The position numbers and the translations under genes were made by a program. Shown piece by piece: positions 36,331 to 62,466 of a stretch of DNA of 64,000 nucleotides. The notes below the pieces were generated by a model. That model searched no databases. It was not told where the DNA came from and saw only the letters and a list, made by a program, of their open reading frames with translations. Each line of letters begins with the position of its first letter. The first letter of the stretch is position 1. Origin of the DNA: an uncultured Gemmatimonadales bacterium (GTDB lineage: Bacteria; Gemmatimonadota; Gemmatimonadetes; Gemmatimonadales; GWC2-71-9); NCBI GenBank assembly GCA_963842945.1, contig CAWJIM010000002.1, forward strand, positions 32,001 to 96,000, given 5' to 3'.

Positions 36331-36336
36331 CGAACC

Positions 36337-41469: not shown

Positions 41470-42376
41470 TGACGACGAAGGTTCGGAGTTTGGCGCTCCT
41501 CGCTCGCGGATTGGCCTCGAGCTCGTCGCTAGCGGGAAGGAGGGGCTTGCGTGGCTGAACCCGGCCCTGCGGCCTGGCGCCGCAGATACAGACTGGAAGG
41601 CCCGGAGGACAGACGCAGTCCGCACTCCAGCTGCGGAACGCGTGCTTCACCAGCCTATCTTCGCCTGAATGATAGGTAATGATCGACAGCCTTCCCTCCG
41701 GCTTGAGTGCATCGCGAAGGACCGGGAGAGCCCGCTCCAGGTCTTCCAGTTCTCGATTCACCGCAATCCGCACGGCCTGGAAGATCCGGGCGAAGTCACC
41801 CGGTCCACTCTGAGGGCCCAGAACCGCGCGGATGGCGTTGACCAGGTCGTCGCTCGTGCTGAAGCCTTGCCGTTGCCGGCGCCGCACGATCTCGGCCGCC
41901 AGACGCCGCGCTCGCCGTTCGTCTCCGTAGTCCCGGAAAATCTGTTCGAGGGTAGCAGCGTCGGCTTCGTTCAGCAGCTGGGCCGCCGTATCGTCACCGG
42001 AGCCCATCCGCATGTCGAGCGGCGCACCAGGACGGAAGGTAAAACCGCGGCCTTCCTCGTCCAGTTGGCGGGAAGACACCCCGAGATCGAGGAGGATGAA
42101 ATCCGGTCCAAAGCGGGTCACTGTCTCGAGCGCCTCCGGCGAGCCGTATGAGGCCTGGAGATAGTGGATGCCGGTCTCGCCCAGGCGGCGGCGGCTGATC
42201 GCAATAGCCTCCGGGTCCCGGTCGATTCCGAGGACCTGTGCGCCGCTGCTGAGTAGAGCCGCGGCGTGCCCGCCGTCCCCCAACGTCGCATCGACTACCC
42301 GGCGTGCTCCCCGGGCAGCTTCGAGCACCGGTGTCAGCAGCACCGGCACATGGTACTTCGCTTCGGGTTCGAACAT
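41456..42376 (-). CDS. rsmH: 16S rRNA m4C1402 methyltransferase
   Basis: HVPVLL, DATLGDGGH, DLGVSS.QLD, LDMRM, YHSGEDR and NPRARSAKLR; start ATG 42376. Confidence 0.97.
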   Translation of the reverse strand: MFEPEAKYHVPVLLTPVLEAARGARRVVDATLGDGGHAAALLSSGAQVLGIDRDPEAIAISRRRLGETGIHYLQASYGSPEALETVTRFGPDFILLDLGVSSRQLDEEGRGFTFRPGAPLDMRMGSGDDTAAQLLNEADAATLEQIFRDYGDERRARRLAAEIVRRRQRQGFSTSDDLVNAIRAVLGPQSGPGDFARIFQAVRIAVNRELEDLERALPVLRDALKPEGRLSIITYHSGEDRLVKHAFRSWSADCVCPPGLPVCICGARPQGRVQPRKPLLPASDELEANPRARSAKLRTFVVNASA

Positions 42377-42402
42377 GCGAGCTCTGAAGGGCTGAAACAC
42401 AA

Positions 42403-42426
42403 CACCCCGTCCGGAGGGACGGGGTG
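42403..42426 (-). terminator. GC hairpin after tRNA-Asp, possible intrinsic terminator or processing stem
   Basis: Minus strand CACCCCGTCC-CTCC-GGACGGGGTG (10-bp stem) followed by TTGTGTTT. Confidence 0.6.
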
Positions 42427-42446
42427 AGGTGGTTTCGAGAAGCGAG

Positions 42447-42521
42447 CGGGGCTGACGGGGCTCGAACCCGCGACCTCCGCAGTGACAGTGCGGCACTCTA
42501 ACCAAGCTGAGCTACAGCCCC
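42447..42521 (-). tRNA. tRNA-Asp (GTC), CCA not encoded
   Basis: GGGGCTGTAGCTCAGCTTGGTTAGAGTGCCGCACT-GTC-ACTGCGGAGGTCGCGGGTTCGAGCCCCGTCAGCCCCG cloverleaf. Confidence 0.97.
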
Positions 42522-44918: not shown

Positions 44919-45834
44919 CTACGGTTCCCGGGTTCGGTCAAGTTCAGACGTGGCTGCGTCTTCCGGTGGAATCTCCCATCCTTCATCGAGCGCGGCCCGG
45001 CGCGGCAGGTCGGCAGCGCGACGGCGGCGCAGCAGGATCCAGAGGACCAGCGTGAGGACCCCCCACCCTCCCCCGGCCAGGATCCAGTTGGCCAGGCTGT
45101 ACCGCTGGCGAAGGCTTCGGCGCCATTCGACATCGAATTGAGGGACGGTTAGCCCGGTCGTGCGCTGCACAGCAATCTCGAAGTCCTGGCCCGCTCTAAG
45201 GAGGTCCAGCAGTGGAGTGAGCGAACGGGTGGGATTTCGGCGCGCGAGCTCGGTGACGGCCGAGGCCGCCAGGGCGTACGCGGCATCCGCCGTTGAGGCA
45301 GAGCCTCGAAGCGCCCCATCCAGACCGGGAAGATCGGGCACCGCTCCCCGGACCACGGCCAGGTTCAACTCGAGGCTACCCAGCCGCTCCCATTCGCCCG
45401 CTGCCCAGGCCGCATACCCCTCATCAAACCAGAGCGGGACTCTGACCCGTACAGCCTCATGAAGGGCCAGATGGGCCAGCTCGTGCCGCAAGGTTCGGTA
45501 GACGTCTCCCAGATCGGCCCGAAGGAGCACGATGCGCTCCCCCGGCAACGCCACCGCTGCGCCCCAGCCCGGCGCCCGGCCGGCAGAAAGAGAGTCGAGG
45601 CGTCGTGCATCGGGTACCACAATCAGCCGAAGGGGTCCGGGACTGCGGCGCCCCAGGCCGGGCCACTCAGTTGGCTCGGCCGCCCGGCGAGCGAGATCGG
45701 TAGCCAGCCGCAACTGCTCGGGCCAGGCCACAGCAGTAACGGGTCCAACCCGGATAGCTGTCGGTGGGTTCTGCGCGGGCGTGCCCGCCAGGATACTGAG
45801 TAGGACTAGGAGAGCGGACTGCGCGGGACTTCAC
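44919..45834 (-). CDS. Exported zinc metallopeptidase (peptidase MA-like) with a C-terminal TM (frameshift ~45815)
   Basis: HELAH followed by PLWFDEGYA (gluzincin pattern); hydrophobic signal segment in frame upstream of the ORF; GGAG-GTG start at 45834. Confidence 0.8.
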
Positions 45835-46672
45835 CTCCGGCCGATGCAACCTCCAACATTTCCTGACACCGCTTGGCCCAGGGATTGAACTTGTTGGCTT
45901 TGTATCCGTCGGTCCAGACTCGAACGGCGCCTTCCCGCTCTCCGCCCAGCCAGAGAGCGCGACCCAGCTCGAAATAGGCCTCGATGAGGTTGGGGCCGAG
46001 CTTCAGAGTCTTGCGGAGAAAGGTCTGGGCATCTTCGTACATCTCCCGCTCCAGGTACACCAGACCGAGATAATAGTGAGCGTACAAGGTGGCCTTGCGG
46101 TCATTGTCCAGTCGAATGGCTTTGGACAGATGCTCGATGGCCTCCCCGAAGATCCCTTTCTTGAGACAAATATATCCGACGTTGATCCGGGCGAGCGCGT
46201 TGGCCGGTTCCTTCATCAGAACTTTGGAGAAGTTTCCCAGTGCCTCATCGTAGTTCTCGTTCAGCATCTGTGCCCAGCCCAGGAGCGATGTCGCGTGGAC
46301 CGCGCCGGGCGAAAGCGCCAGGGCCTTTTCCAGAGCCTGAATGGCACCACCATAATCGCCCAATGAGATCAGGCTCCAGCCCTTCTCGATATAGGTCGAG
46401 GCCCCCAGGTGGTCGGCGTGAACTGCGGGCCGCTCGCCGGTAAACTGTGGAGCCGCCGTGGCGTCGGCTCCGTTTGCCGTTTGCTTGTAGCGCTCGACCA
46501 GCTCCCGAATGCCTTCCTTGATCTGCCCCAGGTCCGTCAGGGCGCCGTCCACCCGCTTGAACAGAGAGATGATGTCCTTCTTCAGAGTATCCCGTTCACC
46601 ACCCGGTGCGTCCAGGCGGGCGGCCATTTCCGTCAGCTCCGCCTTGAAGGCGGTGAGCCAGGCTTGGGCCAT
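45806..46672 (-). CDS. Coiled-coil plus TPR protein
   Basis: N-terminal heptad segment followed by about five TPRs. Confidence 0.85.
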   Translation of the reverse strand: MAQAWLTAFKAELTEMAARLDAPGGERDTLKKDIISLFKRVDGALTDLGQIKEGIRELVERYKQTANGADATAAPQFTGERPAVHADHLGASTYIEKGWSLISLGDYGGAIQALEKALALSPGAVHATSLLGWAQMLNENYDEALGNFSKVLMKEPANALARINVGYICLKKGIFGEAIEHLSKAIRLDNDRKATLYAHYYLGLVYLEREMYEDAQTFLRKTLKLGPNLIEAYFELGRALWLGGEREGAVRVWTDGYKANKFNPWAKRCQEMLEVASAGGEVPRSPLS

Positions 46673-47137
46673 CTACGCCGCCCCGAGCTCGCTCAGCGCC
46701 AACCGCTCGCTGGAGGAGAGCAGCTTGCGGGCGTTGAGCAGGATGATGGTGCGCTCCGGCCGGGAGATAATTCCGGAGATGTACGCCGCTGCCAGGCCAC
46801 TCACCACCGGGCCGGGCGGCGCGATGGCAGTACTGTCCACCCGCAGCACCTCGCGCACCTCATCTACCAGCACGGCCACCCGCTGCTTCTCCAGCTCCAG
46901 CACCATGACCCGCGTTTCCTCCCGTATCGGTGCATCCAGCTCGAAGCGTTTGCGCAAGTCAATTACGGGTACGGCGGTGTCGCCGTACGGCATCACGCCT
47001 TCGAGGAACTGGGGTGCCTTGGGGAGCGGAGACGGGGGTGAGTAGCGGAGAATACGCTCCACCTGCAGGATGTCGAAGGCGAATTCCTGGCGTCCCACCC
47101 TGAAGGTTACTACCTGCACATCGTCGCCAGTGTTCAT
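46673..47137 (-). CDS. cheW: CheW coupling protein
   Basis: VVTFRVG.QEFA..I..V.RI, PKAPQFLEGV and PVIDLRKRF. Confidence 0.92.
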   Translation of the reverse strand: MNTGDDVQVVTFRVGRQEFAFDILQVERILRYSPPSPLPKAPQFLEGVMPYGDTAVPVIDLRKRFELDAPIREETRVMVLELEKQRVAVLVDEVREVLRVDSTAIAPPGPVVSGLAAAYISGIISRPERTIILLNARKLLSSSERLALSELGAA

Positions 47138-47565
47138 GATGCAGAGGCCTCCGTCAAACGTGAGCTCAGCGCGGGCAAGTCGAGCAGCGGCACCAATGTT
47201 TCCGCATGGCGCGCCACTCCCACAGCCCAGGGCAGCGTCTCCCCAGGGGGAACCGGCAGCGCCCGCTCCCGAACCAGCACCTCTGCCTCGTCCACCTCGA
47301 GACAGACGCGGCGGCCGGCAATGTTCACCACTACCCCGACATTTCCAGAGCCGACCGGAGTCGGCCGGCCTTCCAGCAGTGACGCGAGGTGAACCAGCGG
47401 CAGCATGCGGCCATGAAGCGCGACCAGGCCGCGGACGGCGGCCTCCCTGACCGGTACAGGATGGACCTCACTCAATTGGATTACCTCCACCACCTGCTCG
47501 ACCAGGAGGCCTACGCGGCGTTGGCCGACGCGAACCAGAAGAAATCCGCTTGTACGTGCACTCAT
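47134..47565 (-). CDS. cheW: CheW-like protein
   Basis: [34 protein letters not shown] and LLDL. Confidence 0.85.
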
Positions 47566-48638
47566 TGATGCTTCAACCGGTACAGCTCGGTGGCAATGCG
47601 GTCCGCCATCTGGGCCATGGGCACGACGTACTGAGCTCCTCCGGCGTGGAACGCCGCCCCCGGCATACCATAGATGGTGGCGCTCTCCCGATCCTGAGCC
47701 ATTCCAGTTCCCCCGGCGTCACGAATCTGCCTCAGGCCTTCTGCTCCATCCCGACCGATTCCGGTCAGCACCACGCCGATCGCTCGTGGTCCAAACACCC
47801 GGGCCACGCTTCCGAAGGTGGGATCGGCGGCTGGACGGACGCCCCAGACCGGTGGCTCCTGATCCAGGGCGAGACAGAGCCCGCCGGCTGCTGGACTCAC
47901 CCGCATGTGAAAACCGCCCGGCGCCACATAGGCGGTGTCGGCCAGCAGCGGCATACGGTCTTCTGCTTCGACCACCCTGCAGCGACTCTGTGCGGCCAAC
48001 CGCTCGGCCAGGCTTCTGGTGAACTTGGGCGGCATATGCTGCACGATCAGAATGGCCGCTCCCTGGCCAACCGGCAGGTGAGGCACCAGGAGAGACAAGG
48101 CGCGGGGCCCCCCGGTCGATGCCGCGATGGCCACACACAGTCTTGCCTCACCAGGGGCTTCGACCGCCTGGCCGGCAGGCCAAGTCGGCGGTGGCGCCGC
48201 TGCCTGAGTCAATCGCTTGATGTCGGCGGTCCGGGCGGCGCGCAGGACCGTGATGAGCCGGTCGGCGAAGCGGGCGTTGGCGGCCACACCGCGATCGTCC
48301 TCTTTGACCACCAGATCGATGGCACCCAACTCGAGCGCGCGGATCGCAGCCGAGGCGCCCGGCCCGACGTGAGCGCTGACCACGACGATGGGCCGCGGTG
48401 ACTCCGCCATGATGTACCCGATCGCGCCGAGCCCGTCGACTTCCGGCATTTCCAGATCCATCAGCACGAGGTCTGGAGCGTGCGCCCGAACCTTCCGTAG
48501 CGCATCCATGCCATCGCGCGCGGTGGCCACGACCCGGAACTCGCCGGACCCCTCTACCACGTCGGTGAGAAGTCGCCGGAAGAATGGACTATCGTCCACC
48601 ACGAGGACCCGGCCGGGATCAGAGGTGCCGGACGCCAT
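47562..48638 (-). CDS. cheB: Chemotaxis methylesterase CheB (REC plus catalytic domain)
   Basis: [30 protein letters not shown] and IYGMP; Ser-His-Asp triad present. Confidence 0.95.
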
Positions 48639-49107
48639 GCGCCACCGTGCTCACCTCGACCAGGCCATCGGCCACCCGCAGCCGCACCGTTCGGCCGAAA
48701 TCGCCTCCAACAGCTTCCCCAACCAACGGCAGGTTGTGCGACATGAGTGCCTGGCGCGTCGCGGCCAGATTGCGCTCGCCCATCTGAATGGTGCCGGGCG
48801 GAGCCAGTGCCGCGAACATGCTGGCGCCTCCGGCCAACCGGGCCGTGATGCGCCGGGGCTGAGCTCCCTTGGCCGACATCAGGTGCAGCAGCCGGGGTAC
48901 AGCTGATTGAGGGAACCGGGCCGGATTGCCGTCATCCCGGGCCAACGCCGGCGAGGGGAGAAGCACGTGCGCCAATCCGCCCACCCTGGCCTCGGCGTCG
49001 TGCAGAACGATGGCGACGCAGCTCCCCAGTCCGACCGTCAGGAGCGTGTCCTCCCCTTGCCCGACGCCCAGATCCGCTACCCGGACCACCACCTCACGGC
49101 CGCTCAC
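48619..49107 (-). CDS. cheD: Chemoreceptor glutamine deamidase CheD
   Basis: [28 protein letters not shown] and [11 protein letters not shown] start at 49107. Confidence 0.95.
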
Positions 49108-49925
49108 GCTGCCCGCCGGTAGATTCGCTCGCGCGCGTCCAACAGTGTCAGCAGGTCTCGGGCTCGTCCCGACAGCGATTCCACCTTGCCCAGAACCAGG
49201 AACCCTCCGGGCGCCAGCGCCTCGGCAAAGTCGAGAAAGACCCGCTCCTGCATGGCTCGGCCGAAGTAGATGACCACATTCCGGCAGAAAATCAGCTGAT
49301 AACTGCGTCGAGGAGCCGGATCGATGCAAAGATCGGAGGCCCGAACCACCACCCTGCGACGGACCCGCTCGATCACCCGGTACTCGGAACCCCGCTCTTC
49401 GAAGTACCGGCGGGCCAGCGACGCCGGCACGTCAGCGAGAGCCTCGCGGGGATATCGAGCTTCGTGCGCCCGGGCCAGACACTGGGCGTCGACGTCGGTC
49501 GCGTCCACCGTCACCCGATCGAGGTGCTCTCCTCTGCCCTGCTGATCCAGGAATTCGGCCATCAGCGTGGCGAGGGTGTACGCTTCTTCCCCGGAGGAGC
49601 ACCCTGCACTCCATGCCCGCACCGCGGACCAAGTTCCGCTGAACAGTTCGGGGAGGACTCGATTGCGCACCAGATTCCAGGTTTCGGCGTTGCGATAAAA
49701 GCTGGTGACGTTGATCGTGATCGTGGCCTTGAGCCGGGCAGCTTCCGCGGAATCCCGCTCGAGCAGCTCCTGGTATTCCCCGTAGCTCTGTACCCCGCAC
49801 GCGCGCATGCGAACCGCTATGCGCCGCCGGAGACACTTGTCCTTGTAGCCATCGAGCGAGAGCCCGGTGTGGCGGGAGATCCTGCCGATCAGGTCGAGAA
49901 ATGCTTCCTCATCCGGCGGCGTCAT
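49104..49925 (-). CDS. cheR: Chemotaxis methyltransferase CheR
   Basis: YKDKCLRRRI, INVTSFYRN, WSAGCSSGEE, ATDVD and CRNVVIYF. Confidence 0.95.
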   Translation of the reverse strand: MTPPDEEAFLDLIGRISRHTGLSLDGYKDKCLRRRIAVRMRACGVQSYGEYQELLERDSAEAARLKATITINVTSFYRNAETWNLVRNRVLPELFSGTWSAVRAWSAGCSSGEEAYTLATLMAEFLDQQGRGEHLDRVTVDATDVDAQCLARAHEARYPREALADVPASLARRYFEERGSEYRVIERVRRRVVVRASDLCIDPAPRRSYQLIFCRNVVIYFGRAMQERVFLDFAEALAPGGFLVLGKVESLSGRARDLLTLLDARERIYRRAA

Positions 49926-51539
49926 CGGGAGAGGTCCAGCATTTCCAGGTTGGCCCGAGCCAGCTGATGCCCCGGATTGAGCGCGGTGGCCTGGGCCCAG
50001 CTTTCCCGGGCTCGCGCCAGATCGCGCCGTTTGTAGGCGATGTTCCCCAGCTTGAAATAGAGGTCGTCTCCGAGCCCGGGGTTCAGCTTGGCCGCCCGTT
50101 CGTAGGCCTCGCCCGCTTCGTCGTAGCGTCCGGTGCGGTAGAGAATGTCGCCCAGGTTCTTGGAGACCTGCGGCAGTGCGGCATCTTCCGCCAGGGCGGA
50201 GCGAAGCATCGCCTCAGCCGCCTGCGTATCACCGCTGGCCTCCAGGAGCACGGCCAGATTGTTCTGGAGAACCGGATTGTTCGGGTAGGCCTCGACCCCC
50301 TGCCGGGCGATCCGCAAAGCGTTTTCCGTATCGTCCTGTCCGACCGCCGCCAGAGGCGGCCGCCCAATACCACAGCGCCGGCACCGGCTTCCCCTGCATC
50401 AGCTCGCAGGCCTGGGCCAGGCGCGACTGGGCCACCTTGTTGTCTCCCCGCTTCAGTGCCACGATGCTCCAGCCCAGCATGATCCGGGCGTCGTCCTTGG
50501 CTCGCCCGGCGGCGTCTCCGTAGGCCGCCTCGGCCTCATCCAACCGGCCCAGCTGCTCCAGCGCAAAGCCGAGATTATGCAGAGCAGCCGGCCGGGGAAC
50601 TCCGGCTTCGGCCGCCTGACGTAGCGCCAGAGCGGCCTCGTCCCAGCACGCCTGGCGGATGGCGATCAAACCCAGGAACAACGGGGCTCGGCTGTCGGCC
50701 GGACGCAGCTCGACCACCCGCCTGAACTCCCGCAAGGCCTCCTCCAGCATGCCTGCCTTGTAGAACGCAATCCCCAGGTTCCGGTGCTCGTCGACTCGGT
50801 TATCGTTGACCTTTGGAGGCGCCGCCTTGGAGGTTCCCGTCCGATGAGCAAACCCGGCGGTGATCAGACCGAACAGCGCCTTCCCGACCTCGAATTCCAC
50901 CAGCCCGGATGCATCGATCAATTGCCGCACATCGCGGGTCCCGTCGACCAACGGGAGCAGACGCCGCTGCTCGGCGGACAGCGTGGGTCCTGACTCTGCG
51001 ATGTGGTGCTGGTCGACCGAAAAGATCAGATCGAAAGAGGGGATCTTCTTCTCGATCAGGCTCCATTCATCGACCCGACGGGCCCCTTCCAACAGCAGGG
51101 CCTCGGGACTGATTCGAACCAGAAAGTCTTCCCGCTCCGGTTTCACGCCGGCCTCGAAGTTGAAAGTCCCCGAGGTCCAGGTGAACAGGTAGTACACCGC
51201 CTCTTCGATCTGGAGGCGTATGTAGTCCTCCAGCTCGGCCCGGGTCAGCATGCCGAGCCCTACCAGTATTTCTCCCAGCTTGTGCTGCCGGTCTTCGTCC
51301 TGAGCATCGATCGCCTGCTGCAGCTGCGCGGCACTGATGCGCCCCTTGCGAAGCAGGATATCGCCCAGCCGGTCCCGCCGATTGACGATGGAGGCGTAGA
51401 CGATCTGCCCCTCGTCGAGGTAGATCGTGCCGAAATTGTGCTGATCGGCGAGGGCCAGACAGCCGGTCCGCCGGCCGAGGAAGAGCAGCTGGATGACATC
51501 CGGGAGACTGGCCTCCTTGAGGCTGCCTTTGATGGCCAT
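49922..51539 (-). CDS. DUF4388 (PATAN) + MshEN-like + TPR protein (frameshift ~50340)
   Basis: [35 protein letters not shown] and LLLEGARRVDEW; TPRs continue in ORF 49922..50317. Confidence 0.88.
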
Positions 51540-53536
51540 CAGCGCCACTCCTCGATGATGCGCTCACCGACATCAGGCCAGTCCCAAACTATTTTCTCCC
51601 GGCTCTTGAGTCCGCCGGCGACTGCCACCACTCCGCTTGACCGGGTGGAGGACTTCCGGGGTGGTTTGGGTTGCGCTCCCTCGAGCACTTCTCGAGCCAA
51701 AGTCACCGTTGGCGGGCCACCCTGCGCCTCAGCGGCGTTGAGGATTCGCTGAAGCAGGCCGTGCACCGCTCTGATGGACTCTACCGGACGCGAGCCGACA
51801 TAAGCCGCCAACTCGGGATCGACTGTGCCCACCTTGGCCTGCAGCGAACGCTCGACCACCTGCTGGCGAACTTCCCGTTCCGGAGGCGGCAAATCCACCA
51901 CCAGCCCGCCCTCGAGCCGGGTTCGGAGGCGGCCCTCCACGGCCTTCATTTCCGCCAGTGGCACCGCGGACGTGAAGACCATCTGCCGGCCGGATTCGAT
52001 CAGGAAGTTGAACAGGACGAACAGCTCATCCTGGGTTCGATCCTTCTCGGCGACGAGATGGACATCGTCCAACAGAAAGGCCGCGGCACCGCGGTACCGT
52101 GCCCGCCACGCCGGGACGGCGTCGCGATCGATGGCCTCGATCAGCTCTCCGGTGAGCTCATGGGCGCTGAGGCAGGCCACCGGGCCCTTTAACCGCGTTG
52201 CCAAAGCATTCCCCAGAGCGTGCAGCAGGTGCGTCTTGCCCACCCCACTCGCGCCAACAATGACAAGAGGGTTGTAACGACGGGCTGGTTCCCCGGCGAT
52301 GGCCCGAGCGGCCTGCAGCGCCATGCGATTGCCAGGGCTCTCGAAGAGGTCGTCGAGCCGCCAGATCGGAAGCGGAGCCGGCGGGGGATGCGCGCCCTCG
52401 CGGGCACGTTGGGTAACCGCCTCCGCGCCCGCGATGTCCTCCGGATCGCGAAAGGCGCTGGAGCCGGCCAGCGATGGAGCCAGCTCCGAGGCCTCGGCGT
52501 GAAGCGCCTGGAGCCGGCGCACGTCGGACTCGAACTGGCGCAGCACCTCCTCCGGATCCGTGGTCATCTCCCGCTGCAGCAACGTGTCGAGCCGCGCGGT
52601 ACTGAATCCTTCTCCTTCCCATCGGAGAATTGCCGCTGCCACCTTGGTTCGCCACGAATCCACCTGCTGGGCCACCGTGGCGGAGACCTCCGACAGAAAA
52701 TCGCTGAACTCGTCGATACCCTCCGCCTCTGCTTCCTCCTCTGGCTTCTCTGGCTTCTCTGTCTTCTCGACGTCTCCCGCCAGCTTCCCGGTCTTCCGCG
52801 GTTGCTCCTCAACCCGTTCTGCTCCCCCGGCGAGCGCCCGAGCCTGAGCCGGCTTGAGGGGAGTATCACTCACCGCCTGAAAGGCGACCAGCCGATTGAG
52901 CGCGCCGAGCAACTCACGCACGTTGTCGATCACCAGCGATCCTACCGCCTCGAGCACACCCTCACCAAACCTGGCACGCCGTTCCTCCGCTTTCCGCCGG
53001 AGAATGGCCACCCGGGTCTCATAGTCAGGAGCCGCGATATCGATCACCAGGCCGCCGGCAAAGCGGCGGATGAGCCGCTCGTCGAGCGCCTCAATCTCGG
53101 CCGGCGGACGGTCGCTAGTGAGCACGATTTGACGATTGGTGGTCTGCAAGGCGTCACTGAGCCTGAGCAGCTCAGCCTGCATCTCCCGGCGGTGGGTCAG
53201 GAACTGCACATCGTCGACCAGGAGCAGATCGACGTCACTGAACCGGCGGCGGTAGGCCTCACCCTGCCCTGCCGCCACGGCCGCATGGAAGGACTCAACG
53301 AACTCGTCCAGTGTGAGGTATTCGACCGTCAGCCTGGGGTTGATCGCGCGGGCAGCATGCCCGAGGCCCATCAAGAGATGGGTCTTGCCCAGCCCGGGAC
53401 GGGCATAAATAAAGAGCGGGTTGTACACCGTGCCCGGAGATTCCGCGACTGCCTTGGCGGCGGTGAATGCCAAGCGATTGGCCGCACCCACGACCAGCGT
53501 GTCGAAGCGGTAGAGCGGGTTGAGCGTAGCGGTCAC
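51539..53536 (-). CDS. Tandem DnaA/Hda-type AAA+ ATPase-domain protein lacking DnaA domains I and IV
   Basis: Two copies of ..V.G/SPG.NR.A, YNPL, Walker A ([18 protein letters not shown]), Walker B ([14 protein letters not shown]) and RL..R..GGL. Confidence 0.88.
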
Positions 53537-54135
53537 GCGACGGCGCTCCCCGCGGCCAGACGCTTCAGGACCTGTTCCGATATCCCTTTCAGAGTTTCGA
53601 ACACGCCGGTCCCATGCAAGGCGTCGGCGCTGAAGCTCTGAACCGCGCGGAAGTTCAGGGCGTCATCCATCTCCTCCTGGGTCAGTATCAGGTCGCGCGG
53701 GAGATCCTGCTTGTTGTACTGGAACACCACCGGGAGGTGCCGGATGTCCACGCCCTGCGCCAGCAGATTATCCTGCAGGTTCTGCAGACTCTCCAGATTG
53801 TCGTCGAAGCGGCGAGCCTGGCTGTCGGCTACGAACACCACTCCGTCCGCCCCCTGCAGCACCAGCTTCCGGGTTGCGTTGTAGTAGCTCTGTCCCGGCA
53901 CCGTGTAGAGCTGGAACTTCGTGGTGAAGCCGGATATCGATCCCAGCTCCAGCGGGAGAAAGTCGAAGAACAGGGTGCGGTCGGTCTGGGTAGCCAGCGA
54001 CACCATGCGGCCCCGGCGGGACTCGGGAACGCGGCCATAGACGTACTGCAGATTCGTCGTCTTGCCCGAACGGCCCGGGCCGTAGTAGACGATCTTGCAG
54101 GTGATTTCGCGGGCGGTAAAGTTGACCAGAGACAT
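53533..54135 (-). CDS. mglA: MglA-family small Ras-like GTPase
   Basis: [36 protein letters not shown] and GTGVFETLK. Confidence 0.94.
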
Positions 54136-54138
54136 TCG

Positions 54139-54600
54139 CTACCGTCCAAAGAGTTCTTTGAGGCTCGTGTCCAGCTCACGCTCGAAGTTTTCCGGCAACG
54201 GCTGGTTCTCCGCCGGCTCCCGCGGGGCTGCTTGAACCAGTTCCTCTACCATCTGGTCGAAAAAGAGCTGCACCAGTCCCACCGACGTCTCCGATCCGAA
54301 CACCACCAGACCAATCCACCGTCCCCGCGGCGTGCCGAAGGCGGAGAGCATGCAGCTCTGGCGGTTTCCCCCATGCACCAAAGCAGCAAACCGGGACGCT
54401 CCCATCAATCGAGCAAGCTCTTCGGTCGAAGCCACGATGGCGGCTCCCAGCGCTGCCGCGGTCATCACCTCCACCGACCGGGAGAACCCGTGCTGGGCCA
54501 CCACCTGCCCCGAGGTGGTCATCAGCAGGATCAGCCGGGCGGAGGATTCGGTGATGAAGGTCTGCAGGGGCGCCGCCACCCAGGGCTCGAGCGCGCGCAT
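54139..54600 (-). CDS. mglB: MglB-like Roadblock/LC7 protein with a C-terminal helix
   Basis: LMTTSGQVVAQ, AAALGAA..ASTEELARLMG..F, GLVQL and tail ELDTSLKELFG; directly upstream of mglA. Confidence 0.8.
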   Translation of the reverse strand: MRALEPWVAAPLQTFITESSARLILLMTTSGQVVAQHGFSRSVEVMTAAALGAAIVASTEELARLMGASRFAALVHGGNRQSCMLSAFGTPRGRWIGLVVFGSETSVGLVQLFFDQMVEELVQAAPREPAENQPLPENFERELDTSLKELFGR

Positions 54601-54947
54601 CAGGCCAGGCGACCCACCGCATCCAGCATCTGAACCCGGGCGAGTCCCAGGTTTGCATCGGTCGCCGCAACCGCCACCAGCACCAAATCGTTCCGGCCCG
54701 GTGCCGCCAGAACCGAGCCGTTGTTGCCCCGCAAGTGCACGAAGGTCGGCGCCGGCATGCCGGCCTGCTGCGTGGCGCGATCCAGCCGCTGGACCAGACT
54801 GGCTGCCAGAGCGGCAATCGCCCGGCCGTCGATGCCGTCCATCAGCCTCTCGGCCACCACGAGCCCGTCGGTGCCCGAGATGAGCAGCGAGCCCTTTACT
54901 CCGGGCACCTGAGTGACCCGCTCCAGGGTGACTTGGGCATCACTCAT
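54600..54947 (-). CDS. Roadblock/LC7 protein (MglC-like)
   Basis: VPGVKGSLLISGTDGLVVA, AIAALAASL and ANLGLARVQM. Confidence 0.85.
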   Translation of the reverse strand: MSDAQVTLERVTQVPGVKGSLLISGTDGLVVAERLMDGIDGRAIAALAASLVQRLDRATQQAGMPAPTFVHLRGNNGSVLAAPGRNDLVLVAVAATDANLGLARVQMLDAVGRLA

Positions 54948-55792
54948 GTGTGACTCTCCAGCCAGGCTCGGGCCTCGCGGCCGGCGCGCTCAGCGATCAG
55001 CCCGAGCCGCGCCATCGGTAGAGAGGGATCTCGCACCGCGAGCAGCATCGTGTCCGGCGTGGGTGCCACCAGAAACAGGTTTCCTTCGGGCGACTCCACC
55101 GCGATGGCCTGCCATCCGCCTAGACCGAGCAAGCGGCTCGTCCGATTGGCCTCCTTGGACACTCCGGCCAGCTCAGCAGCCACTCGATCGCCTACATCTT
55201 CGTTGCTCGGACTGAACAGAGTTCCATTCAACCGCAGGCCCTTGCTATCCACCAACATGATGCCGTGATCGCCCCGCCCATTGGCTTCGCTGGTGCCATT
55301 CACGGCGTGAGACACGGGGGTGGGCGGAGCCTCGACCGAGGCGGCCTTGGGTCCGGCCGCTTTTGACGAAGCAGGCCCACTGGCCGGAGCCGCACCGGTT
55401 CCCTTGACCCGCTCAATTGCCTGACCGATAGTGACATCGTCGGGGTCGATCTCGGCGGCGCGGCGGAGATGCTCTAGAGCCGCGGGAATGTCGCCAGCGC
55501 GGAAGTACAGGAAGGCGATGCCCTTCAGGGCGCCGATTCGCATTGGGTCAAACCGCAGCGCTTCGGCCCAGGCATCGAAAGCGCCCGCAAGATCGCCCTG
55601 ATCCCCCAGAATCCTGCCGAGCAGATCGTGAGCGTCAGCCAGGGCGGGATATCGGCTGAGGCCGCCCCGCGTCACCTTGTAGGCGGCGTCGAGCTGCCCT
55701 CGGCGGCGCAGCGCTTCACCCAAATCCAGAAAAGCCAGGCTCGCCGGCTCGTCCGCCAGTCGGGCGGTCAGGGTCTTGATGTCGTCACTCAC
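54944..55792 (-). CDS. TPR + Roadblock/LC7 fusion protein
   Basis: About three TPRs, a Pro/Ala linker, then MLVDSKGLRL..VAAELAG..ARLGLI. Confidence 0.82.
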   Translation of the reverse strand: MSDDIKTLTARLADEPASLAFLDLGEALRRRGQLDAAYKVTRGGLSRYPALADAHDLLGRILGDQGDLAGAFDAWAEALRFDPMRIGALKGIAFLYFRAGDIPAALEHLRRAAEIDPDDVTIGQAIERVKGTGAAPASGPASSKAAGPKAASVEAPPTPVSHAVNGTSEANGRGDHGIMLVDSKGLRLNGTLFSPSNEDVGDRVAAELAGVSKEANRTSRLLGLGGWQAIAVESPEGNLFLVAPTPDTMLLAVRDPSLPMARLGLIAERAGREARAWLESHT

Positions 55793-56822
55793 GATAGCTC
55801 TCCAGCTCTTCTGCCAGGATTTCCGCTGCTTGTCTCAAGCGCTCAACCTCGGGCGCGAGCGCCTCTTCCGCAGGCGTCCGCGTGCCCAGGCGGGACCAGC
55901 TCTTCCAGGTCTCCGCTGCGCCACGAAAACGTCCGAGGGCCGCCTGACACAGACCCATCAGGCGTCGCGCCTCCGGCATCAGCGGATCCGCCCGAAGAAC
56001 CTCCTGGACCGCCTGGGCAGCCTTTTCGAATTGTCCCTTGGCCAATGCTTCACGCACGGGGAGAAGCGGCGTGTTGTGGTCCTTGCCGTTTTGCCCCGCT
56101 GATCCGGCATCCAGTACTACCACTCCTGCTTCAGCCAGGGTGTAGATGGTGCGGGCCACATCGAACTCGGACTTGCCCAAGAGGTCGGCCAGCGTTTGGA
56201 GGTCCCGCAAGCCGTCGACCGCCGCCAGCACTTCCCATTGGAACGGAAGCAGATCCAGCTTGCCCTTTGCCGCTGAATCCGGTGGTGGCAGCTTGGGCAC
56301 GACCCGCAGGTGAGGCAGCTTGTCTTCCATCCGGGACCACTCGTCCGAGCGCCGGGCGGATTCCATCAGCAGCCCTTCGGTCGGGATCCGGAGTGGGGCC
56401 TCGACCAACGCCTCCGATTCGGCCGATTCCTCGAAGCGGAAGTGTCCCTCGGTCCAGCCCAGCAGGTCGAGGATCGTTTCCTCGATCTGAGCCTTCAATT
56501 GTCGGTCGAGCTCCCGGCGGTTGATCGCGCCATTCGCCACCAGGATGTCCCCCAGACGGCGGGTATCTCCCTTCTCCTGCTGGACGAGTGCCCGATCCAG
56601 ATCCTTTGCCGAGATCTTGCCGAGGCGCACCAGCCGAGTCCCGAAGCGCTGCGGGTTCTTTCCCATGCTGGCTGCGACAACGCCGCCCCGGTCGAACGTG
56701 ACCGATGCCGCGGTCTGGCGCAGCTCGGAGGTGACGCGCAAGACCCCGTTCTTCCGGCCCAAATCGAGCAGCTGAAAGACGTCCTGGATATGGAATTCCT
56801 TCAGCGGACCTTCGAGCGCCAT
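55785..56822 (-). CDS. DUF4388 (PATAN) + MshEN-like + TPR protein
   Basis: MALEGPLKEFHIQDVFQLL..RKNGVL, LLGWTEGHFRF and LLMESARRSDEW; C-terminal TPR. Confidence 0.88.
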   Translation of the reverse strand: MALEGPLKEFHIQDVFQLLDLGRKNGVLRVTSELRQTAASVTFDRGGVVAASMGKNPQRFGTRLVRLGKISAKDLDRALVQQEKGDTRRLGDILVANGAINRRELDRQLKAQIEETILDLLGWTEGHFRFEESAESEALVEAPLRIPTEGLLMESARRSDEWSRMEDKLPHLRVVPKLPPPDSAAKGKLDLLPFQWEVLAAVDGLRDLQTLADLLGKSEFDVARTIYTLAEAGVVVLDAGSAGQNGKDHNTPLLPVREALAKGQFEKAAQAVQEVLRADPLMPEARRLMGLCQAALGRFRGAAETWKSWSRLGTRTPAEEALAPEVERLRQAAEILAEELESYRE

Positions 56823-56825
56823 GTC

Positions 56826-59594
56826 TCAGCTTGCCCCGGCAAAGATGTGCTGGAGGTCGCGGGCAGATCGGGCCCGGCTCCGGGCCTCGGTGGCGAAAGG
56901 TCCATCCGGGTCCAGCTCGATTACCCGCTCCCATACTTGAACCGCCTGGTCGAACTGACGTTGGCGGGCAAAGCCGGTACCCTGGTGGTACAGCGCTGCC
57001 GGGTGGTCAGGATCGAAACGGAGCACCCGCGCGAAGGCCTCGAGGGCCTGGACCGTTCGCCCATCCTCTAGCAAGGCGTGGCCCAGCGCCGTCAGCGCCT
57101 CCAGCTCATAAGGATCGGCTTCCAGGACCTGGACCAACACTGGAATGGCGGCCTGGGCCGATTCCGTCCGGCGAATGAGGTCGGCCAGCGGGAGTGCGGC
57201 CGGGGCGTAGGTGGGCAGCAGGTCGAGCGCCCGCTCGTAGGCGGCCCGGGCGGAGGTCCAGTTATGCTGTTCCTCCTCCAGCCCGCCCAGCTCGCACCAG
57301 ACTCGAACCAGAGAAGGATCCAGTTGAAGCGCCGATTGGAAGGCGGTGAGCGCACCGGTCCTATCACCCAGTCGGGCCGAGGCTTGGGCCTGGAGATGAA
57401 AGAGGTCGGCTTGACCGGGCGCGATCGACTGCGCCTTCCGAACTGTCTCGAGCGCACCGGCGGCATCGCCGACGGCAAGTCTCACCCGGGCCCTGGTTCC
57501 CAGAACAGCCGGATCGGCCGGGGCTCGTGACGCGAGCTCATCAGCCAGGGGAGCGGCCTCGGCGCCGCGACCCAGCGACAGTAGCGCCCTGATTTCTCCG
57601 AGCAGCGCCCCGGTGTGCGCTTTAGCAAGAATCCGCGCCTCGCGGTAGCGCTCCAGCGCCTCGCCATAAAGGCCACGGCGAGCGAAGATGTCGCCCAGAA
57701 GCACCGTGGTAGGCGCGGTAGGGGCACCCCGGGCCATGGCACGATTGAGCTCGCCCGAGGCCTGGTCGAGCAAACCCCTGGCGATGAGATCACGGGCTAC
57801 GTTCAGCGATTCTTCGGCGGGCCCGGCCCGGGGAGTTGGGGTGGTGGCCGGGGCGAGCTCCTCGAACAACCGGTCCAGCACCGGGGACTCGAAGCTGAAT
57901 TCCCCGGCCAGCTCTTCGCCACTCACATCGGCCACCAGCTCGGGTGCGATGGCTATAGTCGGATCTTCGTACTGGAGATCGATGGTCAGCGCAAACTTCT
58001 GCGGGACATAGAGCGGCTCGAGCTCGAGCGCACGCTTGGTCTCCCGCAACGCACCATCGAAGTCGCCCAGCTGACTCAGCACAAAGCTCAGGTTGTAGTG
58101 CGCTGGGGCGAAGTCGCTGTCCAGATCCACCGCCCGCCCAAAGGCGTTGCGGGCGTCCTCGAACCGTTTCATCTCCACCAGCACCAGTCCCACACCGTTC
58201 CAACCGATGGCACTGGCCGGCTGCTCCGCCAGCGCACGCTGGTACTCCTCCAGCGCGGACTTGTACTGCCGCTGCTGAAAGAGCAGCAGAGCCAGGTTGA
58301 GCCGCGCGGTGAGCAGCGGGTGGTCACCAGTGAGTGCTTTGCGGAACGCGCTGACGGCTTTGTCGTTCCCAGTCTCACTGGACCGAATGACGCCTAGATT
58401 GTTCCAGGCCAGCTGATAAGCGGCATCGATGGCGACGGCCTTTTCATAGGAGGCGATGGCCTCCTTCCGTCGGCCCGACTGGTGCAGGCAGACGCCGCGC
58501 TCGTTCCAGAGCTTGGGCGAATCGGCGTGTTCCTTCACGAGGTCGTCGTAGAGCTTCAGCGCCGCGGTGAGGTCGCGCCGCAGAATGTGAACCTCGGCCA
58601 TGGCCTGGAGGTTGAGCCGGCGGTCTTCCCCGGCGTCGAGCGCGAGCTGGTACTCTCGCAATGAATCGTCGTGGTAGCCCTGCTGTCGAAGGGCCAGACC
58701 CAGGTTGTAGTGCGCCAGGAGAGAGCCGGGAACGGAAAGCGGGCCAGCCGGGCGGCCGGGCAGCGGGGCAGATTGCGCCGGGGTCGATTGCGCAGTTTCG
58801 CCCGAACCAGGGTGTGCACGCTGGCTGCGTCTCGAGCCCGACTCTTCCTCACTGCCCCGCCGCCCCACCGCCCCGCTGCCGAGCGCCAGATTCGCCTGCG
58901 CCCGCCCGAGCATGGGGTTCAGCTCGAGAGCCCGCTTGGTTGCCGCGCGAGCGGCCTCGGGCTGACCCAGCTCGCCGTACACGAAGGCGAGCAGATAGTG
59001 CGCTTCGGCGTAGTCCGGATTGCGAGCTACCGCCTCTTTCAGTGAGACCAGCGCCAGTTCGGTCAGGCCCCGATTGTAGAGCACCTCGCCCCGATGAAAC
59101 CGGGCCACCGGATTCTCCGGCTCCTGGTCACAGGCTCGGGCCAGCCAGTCACTCGCTGCGTCGAGCCGGCCTCGCGCCTTTTCCGCCAGTCCGAGCTGGA
59201 GCATGGCGGGGACGTCGTCGGGGTGATTCGCCAGAAGTTGCTGGAACTCGATGATGGCGTCTTCATGGCGGCCCAGCATGGCATAGGCTCGGCCCAATTC
59301 CCAGCGCGATTCGCGAGCCGTGGGGGCGCGTTGGACCCGCTGTTTCAGCTCTCCGATCTTGCGATCGTAGTGCCCGCTCTCCCGATAGGCGATCTCCAGG
59401 TTGGTCTGCGCCACCTGCATTTTGGGATCGAGCTCCAGGGCGCGCGCGAACTCTGCGATCGCTTCCTCGATCAGGCCTTTCTGGTAATACAGGACACCGA
59501 GGTTGTTGTGGGCGCCGGCATCGGAGGGATCGATCCGGGAGGCGAAGGATCGAAGCACGGTGAGATCGCGCTCCGAGAGCGCGGGAGCCGGCAT
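56826..59594 (-). CDS. Large cytoplasmic multi-TPR protein (922 aa)
   Basis: Roughly 20 TPRs (AHNNLG, AHYNLG, AWNNLG); no signal peptide or catalytic domain seen. Confidence 0.9.
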   Translation of the reverse strand: MPAPALSERDLTVLRSFASRIDPSDAGAHNNLGVLYYQKGLIEEAIAEFARALELDPKMQVAQTNLEIAYRESGHYDRKIGELKQRVQRAPTARESRWELGRAYAMLGRHEDAIIEFQQLLANHPDDVPAMLQLGLAEKARGRLDAASDWLARACDQEPENPVARFHRGEVLYNRGLTELALVSLKEAVARNPDYAEAHYLLAFVYGELGQPEAARAATKRALELNPMLGRAQANLALGSGAVGRRGSEEESGSRRSQRAHPGSGETAQSTPAQSAPLPGRPAGPLSVPGSLLAHYNLGLALRQQGYHDDSLREYQLALDAGEDRRLNLQAMAEVHILRRDLTAALKLYDDLVKEHADSPKLWNERGVCLHQSGRRKEAIASYEKAVAIDAAYQLAWNNLGVIRSSETGNDKAVSAFRKALTGDHPLLTARLNLALLLFQQRQYKSALEEYQRALAEQPASAIGWNGVGLVLVEMKRFEDARNAFGRAVDLDSDFAPAHYNLSFVLSQLGDFDGALRETKRALELEPLYVPQKFALTIDLQYEDPTIAIAPELVADVSGEELAGEFSFESPVLDRLFEELAPATTPTPRAGPAEESLNVARDLIARGLLDQASGELNRAMARGAPTAPTTVLLGDIFARRGLYGEALERYREARILAKAHTGALLGEIRALLSLGRGAEAAPLADELASRAPADPAVLGTRARVRLAVGDAAGALETVRKAQSIAPGQADLFHLQAQASARLGDRTGALTAFQSALQLDPSLVRVWCELGGLEEEQHNWTSARAAYERALDLLPTYAPAALPLADLIRRTESAQAAIPVLVQVLEADPYELEALTALGHALLEDGRTVQALEAFARVLRFDPDHPAALYHQGTGFARQRQFDQAVQVWERVIELDPDGPFATEARSRARSARDLQHIFAGAS

Positions 59595-59598
59595 GGCG

Positions 59599-60216
59599 CT
59601 ATGGCAGGCGAATGGCGTCGAAAATGGCCCGCAGCGACGACATATCGGGCAGCAGCAGGAAATGGCCCCCCAGCGTGTCCGCGGCTCCCTCCACTTTGAA
59701 GGTGGTCTCTACGCAAAAGGCGTAGTCCCGCTCATGCCCGAAATTGAGCTGCGCCGTGGTGAGAACCGCTCCACTTAGATCGATGACGAGGCTGGGTACT
59801 GACGGGATCAGCATCATGCCCATGAAATCGCTCAGCGCATTCAGATAGGCGCTGGCGAGGATGTTTCCCGTTTCCTTGAGTCCGGATTGCTCCATCTCGC
59901 CCAGCTCCTTGGTGGTGCCCACGGGCCGACGAAACAGGAAGTCACACACGGTGTAGGCGGACTTCTCGGGAAAGAGCACCAACGCCCGGCCGGTCAGGTC
60001 GCCCATCATATGCATGAGCACCGCGGCAACCACCGCGTCGGCCGCGCCGACCAGGTCACACGCTTCTTCCAGCGGGCGCACAAACACGCGTGGCACGGTG
60101 ATCATGATGGTGCGGTTGGTCATGCCGGAGAGCGCGGTGGCAGCGTGGCCGGCGCCGATATTGGCCACCTCGCGAATGGCGTCGAGCTGTGACTCCTTCA
60201 GGTCACGGACTTCCAT
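59599..60216 (-). CDS. cheC: CheY-P phosphatase CheC
   Basis: Two D/S-x3-E-x2-N sites: DAIREVANIG and SGLKETGNIL. Confidence 0.94.
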   Translation of the reverse strand: MEVRDLKESQLDAIREVANIGAGHAATALSGMTNRTIMITVPRVFVRPLEEACDLVGAADAVVAAVLMHMMGDLTGRALVLFPEKSAYTVCDFLFRRPVGTTKELGEMEQSGLKETGNILASAYLNALSDFMGMMLIPSVPSLVIDLSGAVLTTAQLNFGHERDYAFCVETTFKVEGAADTLGGHFLLLPDMSSLRAIFDAIRLP

Positions 60217-60225
60217 GCGGGCCTC

Positions 60226-62088: not shown

Positions 62089-62091
62089 GGA

Positions 62092-62454: not shown

Positions 62455-62466
62455 GGAACTCCTCCT

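Follow-up and report, generated by a model that had tools for sequence, protein, structure and literature searches.

Assembly of the replication initiator DnaA depends on ATP because its box VII arginines reach the ATP of the neighboring protomer, an arrangement established for DnaA, Hda, and other AAA+ proteins. The same core has been put to other uses: Hda (HdaA) is a DnaA-type AAA+ protein that has no DNA-binding domains and keeps a conserved arginine finger, and DnaC, DnaI, and IstB are DnaA-like AAA+ proteins reused as ATP-dependent adaptors. To our knowledge, the known derivatives of the DnaA core (Hda, DnaC/DnaI, and IstB) still act on replication or transposition. Here we describe a gene for a tandem DnaA-type ATPase, named DnaA2x, that lies on a 64,000-nucleotide stretch of DNA (the window; contig CAWJIM010000002.1, positions 32,001 to 96,000) from a soil bacterium of the Gemmatimonadota. 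In the list of open reading frames (ORFs) the gene occupies 51539 to 53536 on the minus strand of the window and encodes 665 amino acids (aa) between a GTG start and a TGA stop. Among AAA+ proteins of the DnaA/initiator-clade kind, DnaA2x is a variant that is new in architecture and in context. Its family, a DnaA paralog proposed to be nonreplicative, stands on its own and has so far been found only in Gemmatimonadota.

A Pfam scan of DnaA2x found Bac_DnaA (PF00308) in two stretches, with an E value of 4.3e-90 for the whole protein. The first stretch, aa 5 to 166, corresponds to model positions 1 to 162, and the protein thus begins 4 residues before its domain III match, with neither domain I nor the linker domain II ahead of it. 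Neither the domain IV helix-turn-helix (HTH; Bac_DnaA_C, PF08299) nor domain I (DnaA_N) was among the 14 Pfam families matched at an E value of ≤0.01. The NCBIfam DnaA equivalog model TIGR00362 aligns only at model positions 102 to 328 of 437, that is, domain III, and the whole-protein score of 440.6 bits passes the cutoff of 343.9 only by summing two such partial matches. We also modeled the full-length protein with AlphaFold2 from an alignment of 40 family members. The model has a mean predicted local distance difference test score (pLDDT) of 85.9 and falls into five parts: confident AAA+ modules at aa 1 to 236 (D1) and about 395 to 620 (D2), a disordered acidic segment at aa 239 to 276, a confident helical segment at aa 276 to 385, and a low-confidence tail of only about 45 aa after D2. 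The predicted template modeling score is 0.48, too low for the placement of D1 relative to D2 to be read from the model. An earlier annotation made from the letters of the window alone (the sequence-only reading) had proposed two DnaA-type AAA+ domains with neither domain I nor a C-terminal HTH, and had predicted that a profile scan would return Bac_DnaA twice and Bac_DnaA_C not at all. The Pfam result is exactly that, the TIGR00362 alignment and the two modeled modules agree with it, and the motifs quoted in that reading are all present in the translation.

D1 (aa 1 to 236; 52829 to 53536, minus strand) is identified as a DnaA domain III AAA+ module by its identity to the DnaA of the same genome, its matches in the PDB, and its motifs. 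Its identity to that DnaA is 44%. In a PDB sequence search its best matches were 8bv3/8btg (E = 3e-55), and the top Foldseek match to the modeled domain was domain III of Bacillus subtilis DnaA (8bv3_A), with a target-normalized TM score of 0.93, a root mean square deviation of 1.6 Å, and 42% identity, bearing out the earlier description of this domain as very DnaA-like. The module contains Walker A K51 and T52, Walker B D108 and D109 in DDVQFL, sensor 1 D142 in TSDRPP, box VII R154 and the arginine finger R158 in RLIRRF, and sensor 2 R207 in NVRELLGAL. At Escherichia coli DnaA positions 178, 179, 235, 236, 269, 285, and 334, D1 of the window protein reads K, T, D, D, D, R, and R. (The E. coli residue numbers were checked against the E. 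coli sequence, L093.)

D2 (aa 393 to 620; 51677 to 52360, minus strand) is a second, degenerate DnaA-type module, as judged by its identity values, its motif counts, and its branches in the tree described below. It shares 33% identity both with the DnaA of this genome and with D1. It carries K434 and T435 in GASGVGKT, D490 and D491 in DDVHL, R536 and R540 in RLRTRL, and R589. The sensor 1 sequence TSAVP, which had already been called degenerate, has Ala in place of the sensor 1 Asp, and a His stands at the position aligned to E. coli E204.

We counted catalytic residues in 75 less-redundant two-module members, a set drawn from the window protein, the cluster representatives, and the distant loci that leaves out the 62 close-locus sequences; the residue picture was the same when all 137 sequences were counted. 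The Walker A residues K178 and T/S179 are each kept in 75/75 D1 modules, compared with 52/75 and 57/75 D2 modules. For the Walker B residues, D235 is kept in 75/75 D1 and 54/75 D2 modules and D236 in 73/75 and 46/75. The acidic residue E204 is retained by 61/75 D1 modules and, as Glu, by 6/75 D2 modules; sensor 1 D269 is retained by 58/75 and 32/75. The box VII residue R281 (D1, 55/75; D2, 56/75) and the arginine finger R285 (D1, 57/75; D2, 60/75) are kept in both modules, and sensor 2 R334 is kept in 66 of the 75 D1 modules and 40 of the 75 D2 modules (a further 25 D2 modules have gaps at this position). Across these members the box VII arginines of D2 thus outlast its P-loop, and the D2 lid is missing in 25/75. 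From these residues we predict that D1 is a catalytically competent module, with a working ATP switch under strong constraint. D1 has not kept the DnaA residues that serve in single-stranded DNA (ssDNA) contact and AID: E mostly stands in place of R245, R227 is absent, and V211 has given way to H, R, A, T, or E. Among 20 relatives (alignment A3), the mean identity to the window protein is 0.86 for D1, 0.69 for D2, 0.68 for the helical domain between them, 0.69 for the tail, and 0.20 for the acidic spacer (aa 233 to 272).

The region between the modules had been read as an acidic/helical linker. Both parts are indeed present, and we now divide the region into a disordered spacer, LinkA, and a conserved helical domain, LinkB. 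LinkA (aa 237 to 275; 52712 to 52828, minus strand) is acidic, of low complexity, predicted to be disordered (pLDDT of <50 over aa 239 to 276), and poorly conserved. LinkB (aa 276 to 392; 52361 to 52711, minus strand) is specific to the family, has near-invariant columns in the family alignment, and carries the motifs DEFxxFLSEV, WxxEGFxTxRLExLL, and FRDPD. Its pLDDT is 85 to 92 in the full model and 81.9 when it is modeled alone from a 28-row alignment, in which case it forms a bundle of long helices. Pfam returned nothing for LinkB except T2SSF at an E value of 0.2, the ESM Atlas gave no usable match, the best E value in a Foldseek search of the PDB was 1.5, and VIA-align against 48,161 chains reached a best Z score of 6.4, to generic helical hairpins covering residues 1 to 59 only. 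Thus, no relative or specific fold was found for LinkB in the Pfam, ESM Atlas, and PDB searches, a result that does not imply a novel fold.

The W-rich tail noted earlier proved to be a family-wide motif (aa 645 to 665; 51542 to 51604, minus strand), with the consensus [WF][FL]xxxEKxVWxWPxxxxRhhEE at the extreme C terminus and with E647, K648, W653, and P654 near-invariant. It is visible at 9/10 distant loci (L083 to L092), single-module and family f7 forms included; the frame at L086 stops before the motif. It is also seen in the single-module cluster representatives that were printed. The single-module forms consist of D1, LinkB, and (where printed) the tail, without D2; they occur in families f5 and f8 and among the cluster representatives, where several are 355 to 456 aa long. 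The f5 and f8 genes occupy the slot of the two-module gene, between the genes for MglA and a PATAN-TPR protein. Because the single-module forms keep LinkB and the tail, the signature of the family is D1, LinkB, and the tail, with D2 optional. The D2 of f4 and f7 lacks its lid, matching the profile over the alpha-beta core alone (positions of about 17 to 175 of 232).

Both modules of DnaA2x share the AAA+ fold and motifs of DnaA (PF00308, TIGR00362; structures 8bv3/8btg, 2z4r, and 1l8q/2hcb/3r8f), and in most members D1 also shares its arginine finger, sensor 1, and sensor 2. Unlike DnaA, DnaA2x has no detected domain I or IV and has two AAA+ modules per chain, an additional helical domain, and a motif at the C terminus; its D1 has lost the ssDNA H/B-motif residues and falls into a separate clade; and the gene is not beside dnaN, the true dnaA being elsewhere. 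The source genome, a metagenome-assembled genome (MAG) of 24 contigs with 86.9% completeness and 6% contamination, has three Bac_DnaA matches, namely the two DnaA2x modules and one on contig C19. The C19 frame also has the only Bac_DnaA_C match of the genome and encodes a normal DnaA of about 460 aa, so the canonical dnaA that the sequence-only reading expected elsewhere is present as a single copy. JGI records call many DnaA2x homologs "chromosomal replication initiator protein" DnaA; they are annotated in this way because the two modules together pass the TIGR00362 cutoff.

In an analysis with IQ-TREE (a quick LG+C20 tree of 112 domain sequences and 232 columns), we included 12 of the 78 close loci described below, 12 two-module and 8 single-module cluster representatives, the 10 distant loci, and two giant relatives. 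D1 and the single-module forms make up one clade with 100 support in the Shimodaira-Hasegawa-like approximate likelihood ratio test (SH-aLRT), and 30 Gemmatimonadota DnaA sequences together with E. coli DnaA make up another (SH-aLRT, 86), apart from D1. The D2 sequences fall outside both clades on longer branches. Because single-module forms occur at at least four places inside the D1 clade, repeated loss of D2 is suggested, with the reservation that gain and loss look the same in an unrooted tree. Rooting on E. coli Hda was tried and set aside, as the Hda branch, at 3.12, is very long and groups with other long branches; neither an order of duplication nor an origin of D2 from D1 is drawn from it.

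The gene is found well beyond this genome. The best 120 database matches are 592 to 664 aa long, with 83 to 94% identity and 92 to 100% query coverage, and those with named sources come from Gemmatimonadales. Scanning species-representative genomes, we obtained 183 relatives and kept 78 loci with 59 to 94% identity that are full length where the contig permits. All 78 are in Gemmatimonadota bins except for one, on a contig of 4,070 bp that was assigned to a Solirubrobacterales bin. This contig (of the pair L057 and L059) has a counterpart of equal length and with the same match coordinates in a Gemmatimonadales bin; it is probably a misbinned contig, the same contig having been binned twice, and gives no evidence for the gene outside Gemmatimonadota. 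A library of clusters at 50% identity contains dozens of clusters with the order D1-LinkA-LinkB-D2-tail, down to about 31 to 36% identity, and the few representatives with source names are from Gemmatimonadota.

With these data, the idea that DnaA2x is an assembly artifact, a chimera, or a decaying duplicate of dnaA can be set aside as having next to no probability. Its source is a MAG of limited completeness with some contamination, as given above, and at one long-read MAG locus (L018, 6112 to 8082) the alignment of the gene breaks into several segments in different frames, which is probably a homopolymer or frameshift error and possibly a real pseudogene. However, the same full-length architecture recurs at 78 independent loci from many studies, LinkB is present in 273/401 genomes, the catalytic motifs are conserved, and the window frame has no internal stops; the 120 best matches, the 78 loci, and the 273 genomes exclude the artifact. 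Weaker evidence of the same kind comes from RNA libraries: short contigs (151 to 277 nucleotides [nt]) that match parts of the gene almost perfectly were found in three metatranscriptome runs from a single rhizosphere study, one of them agreeing with 52340 to 52566 over 227 nt without a difference, and DNA carryover may also explain them. None of the contigs in those three runs bridges a gene junction, and the parts that they leave uncovered are uninformative. The share of words matched in these runs is small (0.05 to 0.11), and we draw no claim about habitat from it.

We examined the distribution of the family in 401 Gemmatimonadota genomes with the LinkB region (123 aa) as the query, chosen against cross-matches to DnaA, and scored MglA at an E value of ≤1e-30. 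The totals include the genome of the window, and the tallies include four genomes flagged as unpublished (G057, G182, G097, and G157), which no locus-level statement uses. LinkB and MglA, respectively, were found in 161/166 and 166/166 genomes of family f1, 74/93 and 93/93 of f2, 5/5 and 5/5 of f3, 5/7 and 7/7 of f4, 2/2 and 2/2 of f5, 0/30 and 3/30 of f6, 21/70 and 34/70 of f7, 4/4 and 4/4 of f8, and 0/23 and 0/23 of f9 to f12, for totals of 273/401 and 315/401. MglA is encoded in 273/273 LinkB-positive genomes, as read from the family tallies and, for f7, genome by genome (21/21). Most f1 to f5 genomes have two MglA-type genes, one with an E value of about 1e-85 to 1e-130 and one of about 1e-63, and the window genome likewise has two matches; at the loci inspected, the stronger copy is the one that adjoins the ATPase gene or the PATAN-TPR gene. 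A single MglA copy is found in f7 genomes, with 55 to 56% identity to the window MglA in the four listed.

In the window, the DnaA2x gene is joined to both of its neighbors. Its GTG start and the TGA stop of mglA overlap by 4 nt (minus strand, GCG TGA / GTG ACC), and its TGA stop shares 1 nt with the ATG of the downstream gene (minus strand, TGG CGC TGA TGG CC); these two overlaps had been pointed out before and can be read directly from the sequence. The upstream gene (53533 to 54135, minus strand; 200 aa) is, by sequence, a true MglA, matching Myxococcus xanthus MglA (5ymx) at an E value of 1.4e-72 over aa 1 to 197 and Thermus thermophilus MglA (3t12) at 3e-65. The downstream gene (50229 to 51548, minus strand; 439 aa) encodes the PATAN-TPR protein, which combines DUF4388, an MshEN-type motif, and TPRs. 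Its Pfam matches are DUF4388 (PF14332; E = 1e-36, 126.1 bits against a cutoff of 25) and TPR families. The overlapping ATG corresponds to residue 4 of the ORF as listed; the alignment has its first invariant residue here, and the protein probably starts at this ATG, at 51539. Homologs align only to about residue 397, and the final 40 or so residues (50229 to 50360) are not conserved; this end overlaps the start of the next TPR gene (49922 to 50317), and the true C terminus or the next start may differ from the ORF list. Within aa 60 to 111, the model NF053729 (an MshE-related motif for cyclic di-GMP [c-di-GMP]) scores 47.1 bits against a cutoff of 38, and the protein matches the c-di-GMP-binding N domain of Vibrio cholerae MshE (5htl) at an E value of 3.5e-7. 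The MshEN motif is defined by tandem 24-residue repeats of the form RLGxx..Q (PMC5013675), and two RLG/KLG...Q repeats are visible in PATAN-TPR. The motif suggests a putative c-di-GMP input.

The downstream neighbor is constant across the family. PATAN-TPR is directly downstream at 63/63 close loci with at least 1,300 bp of downstream DNA, and the commonest offset between the DnaA2x and PATAN-TPR alignments is -6 nt. Similarly, mglA is directly upstream at 71/71 close loci with at least 700 bp of upstream DNA (62 called by script, 6 reexamined, and 3, namely L036, L041, and L050, read from the alignment table). At the ten distant loci, which belong to other families, PATAN-TPR is downstream in 10/10 and mglA upstream in 6/10, giving totals of 73/73 for PATAN-TPR and 77/81 for mglA. 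The exceptions without mglA are all from f7 (L085, L086, L087, and L092), and 4/4 of these inspected loci have neither mglA nor che genes nearby; adjacency to mglA is therefore not obligatory. Each of the four genomes concerned has one MglA-type gene. In G336 and G288 it shares a contig with the ATPase gene, at a distance of 87 kb to more than 1 Mb, and in G116 and G322 it is on another contig. The sequence-only reading had held that homologs unlinked to mglA or che genes would speak against it; among the loci inspected, such homologs occur in f7, and those f7 genomes still encode MglA. The ATPase is thus never without PATAN-TPR at the 73 loci, can be lost from the block of genes around it, and can persist without adjacent mglA or che genes.

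L085 (G288:C3:1827000-1846000), the only f7 locus scanned with Pfam, has just the ATPase and PATAN-TPR genes between a pseudouridine synthase gene and a peptidase-MA gene. These are the same two genes that bracket the 17-kb Che-Mgl block in the window (44919 to 63982); a DivIVA gene is also near the L085 pair. Because the L085 pair and the window block share these flanks, the Che-Mgl genes would have been either inserted around the ATPase/PATAN-TPR pair or deleted from around it.

The block itself runs on the minus strand from about 63.0 to 45.8 kb. Its upstream half (55785 to 63018, by Pfam) comprises, in order, CheW, CheY, CheA, CheC, a TPR protein (922 aa), and a second PATAN-TPR protein (345 aa). 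These are followed by a TPR-Roadblock gene (54944 to 55792; Robl_LC7 E = 4e-6), a Roadblock/LC7 (MglB-like) gene (54600 to 54947; E = 1.4e-12), and a further Roadblock-like (MglB-like) gene (54139 to 54600; E = 0.0015), all on the minus strand, and then by MglA, DnaA2x, and the 439-aa PATAN-TPR. The downstream half (45806 to 50317, minus strand, by Pfam) continues with a TPR protein (131 aa), CheR, CheD, CheB, two CheW proteins, and a TPR protein (288 aa), and its synteny is kept over 78 related loci as far as each extends. Four proteins of the block have a CheW domain. No methyl-accepting receptor (MCP) domain was found among the ORFs scanned with Pfam in the block (45806 to 63018), and the receptor must therefore be encoded elsewhere or be atypical. 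Upstream of the block is the pseudouridine synthase gene; downstream are the peptidase-MA gene and then the dcw cluster, whose genes in the window (35203 to 42505, on the strand of the block) are mraW, an ftsI-type penicillin-binding protein gene with a PASTA domain, murE, murF, and mraY.

Three further relatives differ from the common plan. The giants P0199 (1,990 aa) and P0202 (1,876 aa), both cluster representatives, have an N-terminal MshEN domain (aa 64 to 147; E of about 1e-19) fused directly to a DnaA-type module, followed by about 1,250 residues rich in Glu, Ala, and Lys, coiled-coil-like by eye, and a second DnaA-type module near the C terminus. The fusion ties MshEN (c-di-GMP) to an ATPase of the DnaA2x kind, and the giants lend plausibility to a structural role such as the polar scaffold considered below. 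In 201 Gemmatimonadota genomes, none of the matches listed (150 of 424) spans both parts of an MshEN-DnaA giant. P0200 (673 aa, on a 2,656-bp contig) has two Bac_DnaA modules, a C-terminal Bac_DnaA_C HTH (E = 4e-24), and an Hda_lid match; this protein could be a DnaA with tandem AAA+ modules and retained DNA binding, or else an artifact of fusion or assembly.

As to function, we give an even chance to the reading that DnaA2x is an ATP-driven assembly switch that works with its PATAN-TPR partner in polarity or motility signaling. D1 would bind and hydrolyze ATP, and ATP would drive a change in assembly state. Such a switch is proposed because the motifs of D1 are kept and D2 has trans-acting arginines, as in the DnaA filament. 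D2 would probably act mainly as an arginine finger donor or as a regulatory partner of a neighboring ATP site, in cis or between molecules, because it keeps its box VII arginines more often than its own P-loop. LinkB and the tail would be the adaptor surfaces. TPR domains commonly bind short peptides, and the likeliest receptor for the tail would be the TPR part of the cotranslated PATAN-TPR protein. The pair may then serve as a switch or scaffold, timed by nucleotide, through which c-di-GMP, MglA, or Che signals reach polarity or type IV pilus-type motility; an output of this sort is suggested by the position of the gene beside MglA/MglB inside a Che block. In Synechocystis, PATAN domains bind the pilus motor proteins PilB1 and PilC, according to a preprint (bioRxiv 10.1101/2021.06.11.447907), and the association of MglA/MglB and PATAN genes has been published (PMC4316618). 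Predictions of a complex between aa 1 to 400 of PATAN-TPR and aa 268 to 665 of DnaA2x, made from 21-row alignments, scored 0.33, 0.55, and 0.45, and a control with an unrelated partner scored 0.42, so that these scores speak neither for nor against the complex. A more specific form of this proposal, which we consider rather unlikely, is that the ATP filament chemistry of DnaA has been turned into a cytoplasmic, DNA-independent assembly. The tandem ATPase would polymerize or close head to tail on ATP, its WxWP tail would be captured by the c-di-GMP-sensing PATAN-TPR, and together the two would make a nucleotide-timed landmark or scaffold at the pole that sets MglA-dependent polarity.

Several observations weigh against an assembly switch in signaling and lend something to its rivals. 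Related genomes are not independent, and the phyletic counts are descriptive and overstate their support. Five LinkB-negative genomes (93 to 99% complete) hold only the canonical Bac_DnaA match. At 3/3 loci from LinkB-negative genomes mglA is followed directly by PATAN-TPR, with Che and Roadblock genes around in two of the three and only CheR after PATAN-TPR in the third; three lineages thus keep the operon without DnaA2x. In addition, the block adjoins the dcw division cluster in the window, and D1 remains close enough to the genome's own DnaA (at the 44% identity given above), with its arginine finger kept, for mixed assemblies with DnaA to be conceivable; D2, at 33% identity, keeps its arginine finger in most members as well. 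These last points fit the Hda-like regulator that the sequence-only reading had offered as one of its two alternatives. As we frame it, DnaA2x, through D1 and/or D2, would join or cap ATP-DnaA oligomers, promote or block hydrolysis of DnaA-bound ATP, and couple initiation to polarity, chemosensory, or c-di-GMP signals. We judge it improbable. The best stretch of the Hda model TIGR03420 does fall on D2 (aa 398 to 619), but its score of 150.2 bits is under the cutoff of 194.8, and the HdaA models NF006571 (44.6 bits) and NF051883 (41.5 bits) are far from their cutoffs of 297 and 300. The clamp motif, sought as Q[LIV][SDPTE]L[FPL] in the first 30 aa, occurs in 0/91 members (the E. coli Hda control has QLSLPL). 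Unlike Hda, DnaA2x has two modules, LinkB, and the tail, and its genomic partner is PATAN-TPR. Moreover, the D1 clade is separate from DnaA, and DnaA2x is missing in 128/401 genomes, whereas canonical dnaA (Bac_DnaA_C) is present in 41/41 genomes searched; its presence tracks MglA and PATAN-TPR, not dnaA or dnaN.

A further point against the signaling switch is that D2 often retains residues that, in E. coli, make contact with ssDNA or mark ATP-DnaA, namely I/V211 in 42/75 members, R227 in 44/75, and R245 in 46/75 (I, R, and R in the window protein), and because it retains them a nucleic acid ligand for D2 is possible. Carried further, this would make DnaA2x a filament that polymerizes on ssDNA or RNA, for example, on DNA taken up via type IV pili or as a nucleoid-anchored positional mark. 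The DnaA domain III fold is modeled confidently, initiator-specific helices included, and the genome encodes PilB-like MshEN ATPases. However, D1, the best-conserved module, has lost the same residues; D2 is lidless in 25/75 members and absent from the single-module forms that keep LinkB and the tail; the Pfam scan of DnaA2x found no duplex DNA-binding domain family; and the retained residues may serve only the packing of the modules against each other. We regard a nucleic acid filament as quite improbable. The other alternative of the sequence-only reading, an initiator-clade ATPase repurposed as a signaling scaffold, fits better, with PATAN-TPR adjacent at 73/73 loci, MglA in 273/273 genomes, the added LinkB and tail, and the loss of ssDNA residues from D1, and it is better supported than the Hda-like alternative.

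The proposed switch can be compared with other systems. DnaC, DnaI, and IstB give weak matches to DnaA2x (IstB, 95.1 bits), but all of these models are far under their cutoffs, and DnaA2x has no helicase-binding N domain and sits in a conserved chromosomal context rather than a mobile element. STAND NTPases with TPR sensors, of the MalT/AfsR type, build a signaling hub from an oligomerizing P-loop switch and a TPR sensor of a ligand or partner. The likeness to DnaA2x with PATAN-TPR is an analogy of proposed function. DnaA2x and the TPR protein are separate, translationally coupled products, and the ATPase belongs to the DnaA type rather than to NACHT or NB-ARC, with only marginal nSTAND matches, under the cutoff, on the P-loop. 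The nearest known counterparts of the window block are the M. xanthus Frz chemosensory pathway with the MglA/MglB polarity module and the cyanobacterial PatA-type PATAN regulators, as the block joins CheA, CheY, CheW, CheR, CheB, CheC, and CheD with MglA, Roadblock (MglB-like), PATAN, and TPR proteins.

We found no published account of the DnaA2x protein in the literature searched, a search that left most subscription journals outside its scope. The string "dnaa" occurs 0 times in the available portions of both PMC4316618 and bioRxiv 10.1101/2021.06.11.447907. In the supplementary table of PMC4316618, the row for Gemmatimonas aurantiaca T-27 (GAU_1409) reads "PATAN>MglA>-PATAN>" and leaves the gene between MglA and PATAN unnamed. 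We infer that this gene is DnaA2x and that a cultured species appears to carry the locus.

The family is conserved over much of a bacterial class and has kept the core catalytic apparatus of an initiator, dropped its parts for DNA recognition, and gained a domain and a tail of its own. Its misannotation as DnaA can mislead origin prediction and gene counts and may suggest two dnaA genes per Gemmatimonadota genome. Because a cultured Gemmatimonas appears to carry the locus, the function of DnaA2x can be tested at the bench. If the proposed role is true, this would be the first case of an initiator ATP switch in signaling or cell polarity.

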